Shown here: piece after piece, positions 2,960 to 58,349 of the stretch | Numbering within the stretch: position 1 is the stretch's first letter | Layout: each line of letters opens with the position of its first letter | Source of the DNA: an uncultured Gammaproteobacteria bacterium | GTDB lineage: Bacteria > Patescibacteriota > Patescibacteriia > UBA9570 | Direction of reading: 5' to 3' | Assembly: GCA_964385285.1 (NCBI GenBank) | Contig: CAYLOJ010000004.1 | Location: forward strand, 7,736-71,735 | Length of the DNA: 64,000 nucleotides | The notes under the pieces: generated by a model | Told to the model about the DNA's origin: nothing | What the model saw: the letters and a program-made list of their open reading frames with translations, nothing else | Databases searched by the model: none | Program-made: the position numbers and the translations under genes

Positions 2960-4240
2960 TCACACAATCAATTTACAATCCTGAGAAAATGGATTGAATA
3001 AAATATGGGTATTCAAAATTTCGGTAGCTAATGCTGTGCGTTTCGCAGCATCATCACTATCGAAGGTCAGTTCCCATACTACACCTTTACTGAGGTTGGC
3101 AACCGACTTCAAGCCGAACCGTGTATGTAAGGTATTGGCAACCGCTTTACCCTCGAAATCATCTGAAAACCGGACGAGGAATGATAAAGTGTTTGGATTT
3201 TGGGTTGGTGTTTGGCTATAACTTTCTTTACTCGTATTCAGTAATTCCCCACTCTCAATTAGCGTTGGTAAAATTTCTTGCGTATCTTTAATGGAATCAT
3301 CATACCAAATCTCCCAATGTGTTTTCCGTGTGACTTTTACAGGAAACCCTTTTTGTTGCAAGGCTAATTCAACGGTTTTAGCAGCATTATCTGTAATTTT
3401 TAGATCGACGAAAAGCTGTAAACAATTACCAGATGTCTGATACGATTCGATCACAACTGGTTCGGGCTTCCATTGAATTTTATAATCGTGGGTAGGAGGA
3501 TGTTCTAACCAAGTGCGCAAATTATTGAATAACGATTCCCCGTTGCGTTCTAATCGCTCCGGATGTGGCATGTAGGCCACCACGTTACCAGCCGGATTGC
3601 AGAATCCAGCAATGCCCCAGATTGCGCCATTCGGTGTAGTCGGAAACTCATTAATCTCCTCACCTGTCTCGGTACAATATTTGAAAATGATTTGACCGTT
3701 CTTTTCCAGTTCAACCAGTAAGTCGGTTGGGAAAATAAATCGGCCTTCTCCATTCGCAACAGTCGCTGGCACTACTGCGCCGGCTGCTAAATCCATCGTT
3801 ACGCAACTACGACCAGTCGGTGCAGTATTCTTAATATAAATCGTGTCGTGATAAAAACCCGTACCGATAATTTGCCCGCCCTTCACCCGGGTATTCATGG
3901 CGACGGCACCCGCTAAGACATCCGCATCTAAACCAGGAATCAAGCCAGTTTCCACTAAGACCTGACAACCATTACAAATACCAATGACGGGTTTGCCCGC
4001 AGCAGCCTCCTTTTTAATGTATTCCATGATGGGATCCAAAGCCGCAATAATGCCAGCTCGACTACGATCTTCGTAAGCAAAGCCACCGGGCAATAGATAC
4101 GCATCGTAGTGGCCTTGTTCCAATTTCTCACGTTCATTCCAACGAACATATTCTGGCTCTAACCCAGCATTTACTAAAGAGCGATAGGTCTCGCCTTCAC
4201 AATTTGTGCCTGGAAAAATAACAACGGCTACGCGAAACAT
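2960..4240 (-). CDS. purQ: FGAM synthase glutamine amidotransferase subunit PurQ fused C-terminally to two tandem PurS-like domains
   Basis: The N-terminal MFRVAVVIFPGTNCE...GICNGCQVL...HPERL matches the PurQ class I GATase. The C-terminal ~170 aa contain two ~75-aa repeats resembling PurS (KITDNAAKTVELALQQKGF...; FEGKAVANTLHTRFGL...). Confidence 0.8.
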   Translation of the reverse strand: MFRVAVVIFPGTNCEGETYRSLVNAGLEPEYVRWNEREKLEQGHYDAYLLPGGFAYEDRSRAGIIAALDPIMEYIKKEAAAGKPVIGICNGCQVLVETGLIPGLDADVLAGAVAMNTRVKGGQIIGTGFYHDTIYIKNTAPTGRSCVTMDLAAGAVVPATVANGEGRFIFPTDLLVELEKNGQIIFKYCTETGEEINEFPTTPNGAIWGIAGFCNPAGNVVAYMPHPERLERNGESLFNNLRTWLEHPPTHDYKIQWKPEPVVIESYQTSGNCLQLFVDLKITDNAAKTVELALQQKGFPVKVTRKTHWEIWYDDSIKDTQEILPTLIESGELLNTSKESYSQTPTQNPNTLSFLVRFSDDFEGKAVANTLHTRFGLKSVANLSKGVVWELTFDSDDAAKRTALATEILNTHILFNPFSQDCKLIV

Positions 4241-32800: not shown

Positions 32801-33183
32801 ATCCCATTCACAATGAACGTGCCGCGATCGGTCATTAATGGGAAATCGCCCAAATAGACCTCTTGCTCTTTAATCTCTTTAGTACGCTTGTTTACTAAGC
32901 GAGTATTCACGCGTAGAGCAGCCTCGTACGTGACGTTCTTAGCTTTAGCTTGATTTTCATCAAAGCGAGGTTCGTCTAAATAATAGTCGTCGAAATGTAA
33001 TTCCAAATCACGACTGGTGAAATCCGCAATGGGCGAGATCTCTTCGAATAGTTCTTTCAACCCTTCGGTTAAGAACCACTCGTAGGAGGTACGCTGGACT
33101 TCAATTAAATTCGGAAGATTAATCGCATCGTGGATCGGTGCGAATGTCTTGCGATAGGATGGGATATCGCTGGTTTTTGCCAT
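29866..33183 (-). CDS. rpoB: DNA-directed RNA polymerase subunit beta
   Basis: 1105 aa with canonical beta-subunit conserved blocks ([14 protein letters not shown] etc.). Confidence 0.95.
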
Positions 33184-33416
33184 AAGTGCTTTGATTAGGG
33201 CAGATAAAAATACACCACTACTAGGGCCATTAGTAGCGGGTAAATGAATTAACTAATTTGTGGTTGTTTTCTTCACTCGGGCCGAAAGAGTGTAGTAATA
33301 AGGTTTTTGATGCTTCCTGCAACACGAATTCGGGAAAAAGATCAGGCCTTACTCTACTAAGGTTATCCACCTGTGTCAACGGCTGACCCCAGAGGTTGTC
33401 AACTGTTTATCCACAC

Positions 33417-39267: not shown

Positions 39268-40212
39268 TCAGTAGCCGCAGTCCTGGCACCAGTCGACGTG
39301 GTCCTGGATGTCCGGAAGCTCGTCGTAGAGCTGATCACCCGGGCACTCGGTAGTGCCATAGTCGCGATGACCCTTGATCACCGTACTGTTGGTGATGCCA
39401 GCTTCGAACATCACCCGCGCCACCACCGCTTCGAGCGTCTGAAGCTCCGTGGCGGTCGGCGTGACGCTGGTGAAGTCGCCCACCAACGAAATACCGACGT
39501 AGCCGGTGTTGTAGCCACTCGTGTGTGCACCCACGCACCACATGCTCGAGAACGAGCCGGTGCTGGTACACATGCGACCCTCGTAGATGTGCAGGCCGGC
39601 TGCGTCCTCGCACACCATCATCTGGTAGCCGATGTCACCCCAACCGTGATCAGGGCCGAAGATGTGGTAGTTCGCCACCGCAGCAACATAGGCGTCGCAG
39701 TCCGTGGTGTCGGCGGCCGTGTGGTGAATCGTCACCGCAATCGGCGCGTGCTCGCTGGGCGGCCAGTCGAGACTATCCGAATACCAACCGTAGCCGTAGT
39801 CGGCGTTCAACTCATCCCCCACGTCATAGGACGTCGGGAAGTTCGACACGCTAGGCCAGGAAGGAATCGGCGGATAGTAGCCAGCGACGATCGCGTCCTC
39901 CACGTCTGCAGAGTTGCTCCAGTCGGTCACGCCACTGCTCTGCGTGATGAGGCTCGCGCCCCACACGCTGCGGTCGGTCGTCATCAGACCCTGCCCGCAC
40001 AGCGCGGCAGCATCTGCACACTCGTCCGGCGCAGTGTCGGTGTCCGTGTTGGTGTCGCCAGTGTCTCCGGAATCCGTGTTGGTGTCCTGCGAATCGGTGT
40101 GCGTGTCCGAGTCGGAATCACCCGAGTCGGTCGACACACCAGTGTCAGTGGGAAAGGGCTTCGTGCCCATGTCGTCCCCATTGTTGCAGGCGAACAGCAG
40201 AATGAACGTCAT
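39268..40212 (-). CDS. N-acetylmuramoyl-L-alanine amidase (PGRP / amidase_2 family), putative lipoprotein with an Asp/Thr-rich linker. Horizontally acquired (high GC).
   Basis: IAVTIHHTA, NYHIFGPDHGWGDIGYQ, GAHTSGYNTGYVGISLVGDF and GHRDYGTTECPG are amidase_2 signatures. The N-terminus MTFILLFAC has a lipobox-like LFAC. GC >60% versus ~45% background. GGAG SD. Confidence 0.8.
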   Translation of the reverse strand: MTFILLFACNNGDDMGTKPFPTDTGVSTDSGDSDSDTHTDSQDTNTDSGDTGDTNTDTDTAPDECADAAALCGQGLMTTDRSVWGASLITQSSGVTDWSNSADVEDAIVAGYYPPIPSWPSVSNFPTSYDVGDELNADYGYGWYSDSLDWPPSEHAPIAVTIHHTAADTTDCDAYVAAVANYHIFGPDHGWGDIGYQMMVCEDAAGLHIYEGRMCTSTGSFSSMWCVGAHTSGYNTGYVGISLVGDFTSVTPTATELQTLEAVVARVMFEAGITNSTVIKGHRDYGTTECPGDQLYDELPDIQDHVDWCQDCGY

Positions 40213-40305
40213 TACGATCTCCAGGGTGGATGTACTTTGCTGAGAGGCTGTTGAAGAATAACAAGCCTACGATGACTACACAAATTTAGGAGGATTCGTG
40301 ACAAA

Positions 40306-40360
40306 CCGAAGAAAAACCGAAGTTATCCACAGCCAAGCTTGACCTTCGGTTTTTATTCGG
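40306..40360. promoter_or_regulatory. Candidate LexA operator / lexA autoregulatory region: CCGAAG-N5-CCGAAG ...21 nt... CTTCGG-N5-ATTCGG
   Basis: Direct repeats at 40306 and 40317 (11-bp phasing). Inverted copies at 40344 and 40355 overlap a putative TTGACC(40339)-17-TAACGT(40362) promoter 6 nt before the lexA ATG. Confidence 0.3.
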
Positions 40361-40373
40361 TTAACGTAGATGC

Positions 40374-41021
40374 ATGACCGCACTCACAAAAAAGAAAAAA
40401 CAGATTCTAGACTTCATCGGAGAATTCCAACAAGCTAAAGGCTACTACCCTACTCTGGAAGAAATCCGCAAACAGTTTCACCTCAATAGTCTATCTACTG
40501 TCCATCAACATCTCTCTGAACTGCAAGATTTAGGAATGATCGAACGTAACTACGGCAAAGCCCGCGACATGAAAGTTGCGATGGAAAGTAAAGTTGGCGG
40601 TAAAAACATCTATAAGACCAGTGCCGAGCCTTATCAAGTGGGGGCCAGCGCTGAACTACATATTGCTGGTTTAATTACTGCTGGGTACCCAATTGAAGCA
40701 GTCGAAGACACTACTGAAACTCTTACAGTGCCCCGCCACATGATCGATAATAAAAACGCTTACGTCTTGAAAGTAAAAGGTGATTCCATGATTGAGAGTT
40801 TAATTGCGGATGGTGATTACGTTGTAGTGCAAAAACAGGACTATGCTAGTGATGGCGATATTGTAGTCGCTTTGCTCGAAGATGGTTCGGCCACTCTGAA
40901 AGAATTCCACCGAGAAAAAAACTATGTGCGCTTACAGCCGCGCAATCAGAACTATAAACCCATTAAAGTACGCAATGTCGTCATTCAGGGTCGCGTACTA
41001 GGAATCATTCGCAAATATTAA
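40374..41021 (+). CDS. lexA: LexA repressor (SOS regulator, S24 peptidase)
   Basis: N-terminal wHTH. C-terminal VKGDSMIES (Ser), TLKEF (Lys) and the Ala-Gly cleavage region HIAGLITAG. Confidence 0.85.
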   Translation: MTALTKKKKQILDFIGEFQQAKGYYPTLEEIRKQFHLNSLSTVHQHLSELQDLGMIERNYGKARDMKVAMESKVGGKNIYKTSAEPYQVGASAELHIAGLITAGYPIEAVEDTTETLTVPRHMIDNKNAYVLKVKGDSMIESLIADGDYVVVQKQDYASDGDIVVALLEDGSATLKEFHREKNYVRLQPRNQNYKPIKVRNVVIQGRVLGIIRKY

Positions 41022-41029
41022 ATTGAGTT

Positions 41030-41335
41030 ATGTCGTATTCTTCTACTAGTACAGTTCCAATTGAGATGTTACCTGGCATCGGCCGTCGCACTGCTAAAGT
41101 GTTGCGCTCCATGCACATCCGCACTGTTGGTCAATTCAAAACACTACCAGAAAAGATGTTGGTTGAGATCTTTGGACCAAGCATCCGCACACTTTACACT
41201 GCTGTCCATGGCATGGAATATGCTTCCGTAGCGACACGACCGAATGTACAACCCAATGTACGTACAGTAAAAGCAATTAAAAATCTAAGCTTCACAAAAA
41301 AATTCCGCTTGGCTACACAGGTGTTGATGATGTAA
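41030..41335 (+). CDS. 101-aa protein matching only the HhH/thumb region of Y-family DNA polymerases (DinB/ImuB-like). Probable gene remnant or stand-alone HhH protein.
   Basis: LPGIGRRTAKVLRSMHIRTVGQF...LVEIFGPSIRTLYTAVHG resembles the DinB (IPGVGK..KL...GI.T.GDL...L...FG) thumb. No palm or fingers are encoded, and only 9 nt separate it from the lexA stop. Confidence 0.4.
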   Translation: MSYSSTSTVPIEMLPGIGRRTAKVLRSMHIRTVGQFKTLPEKMLVEIFGPSIRTLYTAVHGMEYASVATRPNVQPNVRTVKAIKNLSFTKKFRLATQVLMM

Positions 41336-58340: not shown

Positions 58341-58349
58341 TGCTATAAT
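58341..58349 (+). promoter_or_regulatory. Extended -10 promoter element (TGcTATAAT) 6 nt upstream of the ATG. Leaderless transcript likely.
   Basis: tgctataat at 58341-58349, ATG at 58356. Confidence 0.4.

Follow-up and report, generated by a model that had tools for sequence, protein, structure and literature searches.

The stretch of DNA analysed here (64 kb; hereafter the window) holds two pairs of short repeats directly upstream of a lexA gene, one of them overlapping the putative lexA promoter. The first-pass annotation read these repeats as one phased array of CCGAAG words and proposed it as a candidate non-canonical SOS box. The locus therefore raises the question of whether the LexA protein encoded next to the repeats is the one that reads them, which part of the arrangement is the unit of recognition, and at which other genes of the lineage the same unit can be found.

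The lexA promoter and its surroundings

A direct coordinate check placed CCGAAG-N5-CCGAAG at 40306-40322 and CTTCGG-N5-ATTCGG at 40344-40360, and confirmed the 11-bp spacing within each pair, as well as the perfect 11-nt inverted repeat (AAAAACCGAAG/CTTCGGTTTTT) that both pairs form around a gap of 21 nt, all as first annotated. This inverted repeat is extended by a repeat finder to 19-nt arms (40304-40322 and 40344-40362) with 95% complementarity. The four half-sites are spaced by 11, 28, and 11 bp, and thus do not make up a single phased array. In each predicted operator, a 5-bp half-site is repeated directly with a period of 11 bp, and the two operators lie 39 bp apart centre to centre and 23 bp edge to edge (Table 1).

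At zero or one mismatch, CCGAAG-N5-CCGAAG is found in the window at just these two sites, the other four matches carrying two mismatches, a number similar to that found in shuffled sequences. Exact TTCGG-N6-TTCGG gave only two matches on both strands of the 64 kb, both in the lexA promoter, with about 0.1 estimated by chance. Since no further matches exist in the window and the remaining hits stay at the level of shuffles, the repeat element at lexA is real and beyond chance.

Table 1. Features of the lexA locus in the window (positions relative to the lexA ATG, 40374 = +1).
Feature	Coordinates	Strand	Position from ATG	Remarks
N-acetylmuramoyl-L-alanine amidase gene	39268-40212	-		Divergent to lexA; Asp/Thr/Ser-rich N-terminus
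Distal LexA operator (predicted)	40306-40321	-	-68 to -53	TTCGGTTTTTCTTCGG read on the minus strand
DnaA-box-like 9-mer	40323-40331	+	-51 to -43	TTATCCACA; one base from the distal operator
-35 hexamer	40339-40344	+	-35 to -30	TTGACC; TTGAC precedes the repeat in relatives
Proximal LexA operator (predicted)	40345-40360	+	-29 to -14	TTCGGTTTTTATTCGG; conserved core element
-10 hexamer	40362-40367	+	-12 to -7	TAACGT; 17 nt past the -35 hexamer
lexA CDS	40374-41021	+		215 aa; Pfam LexA_DNA_bind 2.8e-14, Peptidase_S24 3.2e-32
101-aa ORF	41030-41335	+		8 nt past lexA; Pfam IMS_HHH_1 3.5e-06

TTGACC and TAACGT are separated by a 17-nt spacer that the proximal repeat fills, and the coordinates of this promoter, ending 6 nt before the lexA ATG, hold as well. 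Its -10 hexamer is weak, matching TATAAT at only three of six positions, which explains why a consensus promoter scan did not call the lexA promoter; the assignment is instead inferred from its conservation in relatives. Six bases are the usual distance from a -10 hexamer to the transcription start. Because this distance is kept at 6-7 nt, together with the LexA N-terminus, in the closest relatives of the window (LexA identity 81-89%; hereafter the clade), a leaderless lexA mRNA with transcription starting at the ATG is likely. Within 40213-40373, no CTGT-N8-ACAG, GAAC-N4-GTTC, TGTTC-N4-GAACA, cyanobacterial, or other palindromic SOS box precedes lexA, in agreement with the proposal of a non-canonical box. 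The same region contains an AGGAGG (40288-93) followed by a GTG (40298) that opens a 14-codon ORF, which runs through the distal operator and the DnaA-box-like 9-mer as far as 40342. This ORF is not conserved in the clade relatives, and is therefore probably meaningless.

The gene downstream of the repeats is, as judged by its residues, a complete and genuine LexA with an intact catalytic apparatus: it has a winged-helix DNA-binding domain and an S24 peptidase domain, none of 36 homologues departs from it at the Ala103-Gly104 cleavage site, Ser138, or Lys176, and the nearest solved structures are LexA repressors. The 101-aa ORF that follows corresponds to no more of a Y-family polymerase than its helix-hairpin-helix thumb domain, and its counterparts in clade relatives are 60-73% identical. 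In locus L006, the position of the ORF behind lexA is taken by a full-length Y-family polymerase with its own LexA site, and it is the thumb of this protein to which the ORF aligns. The 101-aa ORF is probably co-transcribed with lexA, and is either a mini-protein that has been kept or a dinB in decay. According to synteny and Pfam, the genes before lexA are rpoC, rpoB, and those for a Mur ligase, an S8 peptidase, an asparaginase, an AI-2E transporter, and the amidase. After lexA come the 101-aa ORF, an RNase-H-like exonuclease, a PD-(D/E)XK nuclease, LytR, xseB, and xseA, with ruvA, a Na/H exchanger, and uvrB further downstream of xseA.

For both LexA and RecA, the closest homologues carry the names Patescibacteria or Candidatus Kerfeldbacteria. 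A Patescibacteria-type LexA is also encoded in MAG records titled "uncultured Gammaproteobacteria" or "Pseudomonadales" (L007, L008, L027, L031, L032, L035, L046, L047, and L072, among others), and L007, L008, L027, L035, L046, L047, and L072 also hold a Patescibacteria-type lexA promoter. In addition, L008 and the Kerfeldbacteria-type recA locus L332 belong to the same assembly. From their sequences, the taxonomic labels of the records with these titles look wrong.

Conservation of the repeat at lexA genes

For comparison, lexA genes were taken from one genome per species and were located through the protein, not through the DNA. In Kerfeldbacteria-like genomes (LexA identity 49-60%), they are preceded by TTGAC, 0-2 nt, TTCGG-N6-TTCGG, and a -10-like hexamer. 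Throughout the protein-retrieved lexA promoters of relatives, the gap between TTGAC and the repeat measures 0-4 nt. The -10-like hexamers after the repeat in relatives include TAACTT, TAAGGT, TACAAT, TATACT, and TATAAT. Daviesbacteria, Woesebacteria, Berkelbacteria, Collierbacteria, and Saccharimonadia share this lexA element, with TT(C/T)GG as a less strict second half-site. Two Gemmatimonadota lexA loci (L040, L050) carry the exact TTCGG-N6-TTCGG in the -35/-10 spacer, and a TTCGC-N6-TTCGC variant is present in the lexA promoters of Acidobacteriota, Acidiferrales, and Binataceae (L015, L030, L053, L066, L069). The lexA loci of Firmicutes and Actinobacteria in the same data set bear the classical GAAC-N4-GTTC. 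This distribution points to one subfamily of LexA proteins reading direct repeats across several phyla.

In a set of 30 promoters, the GG that follows TTC hardly varies, and the bases preceding each TTC hold 0.04 and 0.03 bits; as the set was anchored on the best repeat match, its information content is inflated at the core positions. Because the base before TTC is without information while GG is almost constant, the alignment identifies the half-site as TTCGG, not GTTC, with no conservation of the leading C of CTTCGG. Of the motif originally proposed, the direct repeat is retained, whereas the CTTCGG form has to be replaced by TTCGG-N6-TTCGG.

The promoters of the clade can be aligned as one block from the distal repeat to the ATG, with no alignment farther upstream. 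The distal copy is inverted in the clade (L283, L297, L321, L323, L325, L327) and in L008, is direct-oriented in L003-L005, and is absent from L001, L002, L006, and most metagenomic lexA promoters; wherever it is present, it lies 38-39 bp from the proximal copy, centre to centre. Since its orientation changes and most lineages lack it, the comparison argues for the direct repeat TTCGG-N6-TTCGG as the functional unit, and for the large inverted repeat being incidental. The distal copy would thus be a clade-specific element that tolerates either orientation.

The same comparison bears on the possibility that the 19-nt inverted repeat is a structure, such as a cruciform, a hairpin, or the terminator of the upstream gene, rather than a set of protein sites. 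As single-stranded DNA, the region 40296-40370 does fold well (-17.6 kcal/mol; z = -5.8 against shuffles). Nevertheless, besides the direct or missing distal arm in the loci mentioned above, the variable arm positions in the clade alignment change without compensation, and a mismatched pair stays mismatched. Moreover, the predicted transcription start lies downstream of both arms, which leaves them outside the lexA mRNA, and in the window the gene upstream is transcribed away from lexA. A structural role is hardly credible, and the hairpin or cruciform reading was rejected on account of the variable orientation and the lack of compensatory substitutions. The uncompensated changes suggest that the good fold is a by-product of two oppositely oriented sites.

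The divergent amidase gene could offer another explanation for the distal copy, in which the lexA operator is the proximal repeat alone and the distal repeat serves the amidase, as the distal site lies between both genes in the window and in L323. However, L321, L325, and L327 have no such gene at this position, lexA being preceded there by a gene for an AI-2E transporter or by a small DUF559 gene, and these loci conserve the distal site and the DnaA-box word, with the same spacing, just as well. The amidase gene is probably a recent insertion adjoining the lexA operators, as suggested by its G+C content of approximately 62% against approximately 43% in its surroundings. An operator dedicated to the amidase is regarded as highly unlikely.

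Other promoters holding the repeat

A position weight matrix (PWM) built from the lexA sites was used to scan the loci and the window, giving scores of 29.9 for the distal and 31.5 for the proximal operator. Together with the search for exact repeats, the PWM found no LexA site at uvrB, ruvA, or xseA, which fall outside the regulon in this window, where lexA is the sole target. Weaker hits at 3100, 25597, 38927, 39774, and 58349 (scores 10-15) hold no intact half-sites and were taken as chance; that at 39774 is inside the amidase ORF, and that at 58349 is upstream of an ornithine/DAP-decarboxylase gene, which is not an SOS gene.

The recA gene of this genome lies outside the 64-kb window, and the regulon is seen through relatives and metagenomes. 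In L006, an independent high-scoring site is located 15 nt before the 383-aa Y-family polymerase gene adjoining lexA, and a second independent site precedes a truncated homologue of this polymerase in L008. Among six Kerfeldbacteria-type recA genes, again retrieved through the protein and not the DNA, five have promoters with TTGAC-N1-2-TTCGG-N6-TTCGG followed by a -10 hexamer (one of them from the assembly of L008), and the sixth lies in an operon behind ftsK. The expectation that the motif would be found upstream of DNA damage genes was therefore borne out for recA (5/6 relatives) and for the dinB of L006, but not for ruvA, the xseA operon, and uvrB of the window.

The 5' leaders of recA in L251, L329, L331, L332, and L333 also hold, approximately 20-60 nt past the -10 hexamer, a conserved stretch with two CCCGA(T) words some 11-12 nt apart (for example, ccccgactgcccccgattcgtgggg), which may form a structure in the leader RNA or serve as a further binding site.

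A search of metagenomes with the pattern TTGAC-N0-3-TTCGG[GT][AT]TTTNTTCGG yielded at least 120 loci. Since TTGAC and a repeat close to consensus are part of the pattern, the set is biased to this promoter architecture. The genes downstream of the matches were identified with simple rules based on ORFs and tblastn, and Pfam confirmed representative cases. Among the matches listed, 85 of 120 loci have one of the following genes on the same strand within 2.6 kb: lexA (38), a family of 80-aa proteins (26), a radical-SAM/HhH repair protein (6), NrdR (4), recA (3), RarA/MgsA (3), Y-family polymerases, and a DnaE2-type polymerase. The repeat is kept at the lexA of distant Patescibacteria and precedes recA, Y-family polymerase, and dnaE2 genes in relatives or metagenomes, which supports the earlier proposal of a LexA motif of this lineage.

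The 80-aa family, the most frequent target after lexA among the metagenomic matches listed, is DUF6504-like. Its loci include L203, L204, L214, L220, L228, L234, L240-L242, L244, L254, L255, L259, L264, L272, L273, L276, L282, L289, L301, L306, and L307, in addition to L037 (7735-7971). A Y-family polymerase gene directly follows the 80-aa gene in 22 of the 26 cases among the matches listed, the other four ending at contig ends. Pfam returned only weak DUF6504 matches, in 7 of 19 members, and a PDB profile search found no solved relative. These proteins may be polymerase accessory factors.

Promoters with the LexA repeat also precede nrdR, which encodes the repressor of ribonucleotide reductase genes, in L209, L219, L230, and L266, and probably in L274. 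This arrangement suggests a link between dNTP supply and the SOS response of these bacteria. The presence of nrdR among the metagenomic targets fits the connection between the Patescibacteria LexA regulon and ribonucleotide reduction that Sanchez-Osuna et al. are said to have drawn in 2017. As a whole, the regulon appears to be small, comprising lexA, recA, translesion polymerases after the small DUF6504-like gene, nrdR, and rarA.

Repeats are also present in viral sequences. A scan of viral contigs for TTCGGTTTTTNTTCGG gave at least 120 matches; those listed were discarded as chance-like, with a -35 context in only one and no LexA homologue encoded. The IMG/VR contigs L098 (7090-7170), L122 (2870-2945), and L082 (1440-1605) hold at least two close copies of TTCGG-N6-TTCGG, and neither a LexA homologue nor a recognisable downstream gene was found in these three. 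Such clusters may be phage promoters controlled by LexA in Patescibacteria hosts, or may have arisen by chance.

Based on these comparisons, both TTCGG-N6-TTCGG copies are very probably operators for the LexA encoded directly downstream, and this repeat would be the SOS box of the lineage. Three lines of evidence support this assignment: the proximal repeat is kept between TTGAC and the -10 hexamer in lexA promoters retrieved through the protein, the same element is found before recA, Y-family polymerase, dnaE2, and other damage genes, and the downstream gene is a complete LexA. It could be argued that a different regulator binds the repeats and controls the damage genes, lexA included. Winged-helix response regulators of the OmpR/PhoB type typically read direct repeats with a period of 10-11 bp, a geometry that is unusual for LexA, and the assignment to LexA itself rests on sequence comparison. 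However, in several phyla lexA itself has the repeat in its promoter, and the genes behind the repeat (lexA, recA, Y-family polymerases, dnaE2, and the radical-SAM repair gene) are those of a classic LexA regulon. Furthermore, no second regulator gene conserved beside the sites was seen in the syntenic relatives. Binding of LexA to direct repeats is established in Alphaproteobacteria (PMC4951493), and has been cited for Patescibacteria (in a statement of PMC7739468). Control by such a different regulator is considered unlikely.

Known LexA boxes, the DnaA-box word, and a model of regulation

A direct-repeat LexA motif for Patescibacteria appears to have been published already: PMC7739468 cites a 2017 study of the Patescibacteria SOS response (Sanchez-Osuna, Barbe & Erill, Environ Microbiol 19:3465, PMID 28618189) for a LexA recognising a direct repeat. 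Set beside that motif as the citing paper describes it, the window shares the phylum, the regulator, and the direct repeat, and its element is a probable member. On that description, the finding of the repeat is correct and mostly re-derives published knowledge.

The LexA box of Alphaproteobacteria and Acidobacterium, GTTC-N7-GTTC (quoted in PMC4951493; Mazon 2006, cited in PMC7739468), had been named in its alphaproteobacterial form as a loose likeness, and the geometry is indeed the same, including the overlap with the lexA promoter. Both are direct repeats with an 11-bp period and TTC-N8-TTC (at 40345, and at 40308 on the complement), and both are placed in lexA and recA promoters. In contrast, the half-site here is TTCGG, with no conserved G before TTC (the proximal site of the window has C and A), and no GTTC-N7-GTTC is present upstream of the lexA of the window. 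Owing to this lack of the conserved G, the element is best described as one that would work like the alphaproteobacterial box without being a member of that motif.

Two operators in the repressor's own promoter are likewise found in E. coli and Verrucomicrobia, where tandem LexA sites lie 1-10 bp apart (PMC4951493). Unlike these, the two sites of the window are separated by 23 bp edge to edge, occur in either relative orientation among relatives, and have a conserved 9-mer between them. In Balneolaeota, a direct repeat, TTACACATATTTTWTACATA, has been validated in vitro as a non-palindromic LexA operator, showing that LexA is able to read direct repeats in several phyla (PMC7739468), although its half-site is unrelated to TTCGG.

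The 9-mer between both operators, which the first-pass annotation had overlooked, is an exact match to the DnaA-box consensus, is invariant in the clade alignment, and is present in L001-L008. Among the matches listed, 17 of 29 metagenomic lexA promoters have an exact box of either orientation 6-9 nt before TTGAC, compared with a background of 0.25% of random 45-nt windows. Regarding recA, the exact box is present in the one recA promoter of the metagenomic box set (among the matches listed) and in three of the six Kerfeldbacteria-type recA promoters, a fourth holding it with one mismatch. It was found in none of the 40 other repeat promoters of known type among the matches listed (80-aa gene, nrdR, Y-family polymerases, dnaE2, and radical-SAM). 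Loci with the exact box upstream of the -35 hexamer include L251, L329, and L332. In L297 and L327 (around 9993 in the latter), which belong to a sub-clade with a LexA identity of 81%, a second exact TTATCCACA overlaps the start of lexA (ggTTATCCACATG), so that the lexA promoter is bracketed by two DnaA-box words.

The window contains two exact copies of TTATCCACA. The other one (33363-33371) is accompanied 44 nt away by a one-mismatch copy (33407-33415), upstream of rpoB (start at 33183, minus strand). These boxes adjoin TTGAC words on the rpoB strand, and the box is conserved at the same place in the syntenic relatives L321, L323, L325, L326, and L327. No cluster of DnaA boxes exists in the 64-kb window, which argues against the site being a replication origin; neither a dnaA gene nor an origin-like cluster of boxes was found in the loci examined, with the exception of one viral contig.

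Given the universality of the DnaA box, we infer that DnaA would bind this 9-mer. DnaA boxes serve as transcription factor sites in the dnaA and nrdAB promoters of E. coli, to which the present promoters are similar in holding an exact 9-mer as a single box just upstream of the -35 hexamer, in either orientation. It is conceivable, albeit with rather less than even probability, that in one branch of Patescibacteria the lexA and recA promoters, and not the other SOS promoters, are jointly controlled by LexA and DnaA. In that case, both proteins could compete for the DNA where the box abuts the distal operator. A literature search found no paper combining "DnaA box" and "lexA promoter", and the presence of this word in lexA and recA promoters is possibly new.

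Autorepression by LexA, which remains the preferred explanation for the repeats, could proceed as follows. The two DNA-binding domains of a LexA dimer would lie head to tail on the direct repeat, as assumed for the alphaproteobacterial LexA. Judging from the geometry of the promoter, LexA bound at the proximal operator would exclude the RNA polymerase, and would thereby repress lexA and the small polymerase-derived ORF behind it. Upon DNA damage, RecA would stimulate the self-cleavage of LexA at Ala103-Gly104 by the Ser138/Lys176 dyad, a step supported by established LexA biochemistry and by the conserved catalytic residues. The promoter thus freed would start a leaderless mRNA at the ATG. Two operators in a repressor's own promoter are a common route to tight, cooperative autorepression, and the distal operator, 39 bp upstream, would be an accessory site of the clade that probably tightens repression. 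As this operator abuts the DnaA-box-like 9-mer, it may also block whatever binds there.

For an uncultured lineage with reduced genomes, these results set the LexA operator as TTCGG-N6-TT[C/T]GG in the -35/-10 spacer, which makes the SOS regulon of such MAGs predictable from sequence. The operator architecture is common to Patescibacteria and Gemmatimonadota, with the TTCGC variant in Acidobacteriota and Binataceae, and therefore bears on the origin of direct-repeat recognition by LexA. In addition, the DnaA-box word at the lexA and recA promoters provides a lead for a coupling between replication control and the SOS response; if true, such dual control would tie the expression of the SOS switch to the status of replication initiation.
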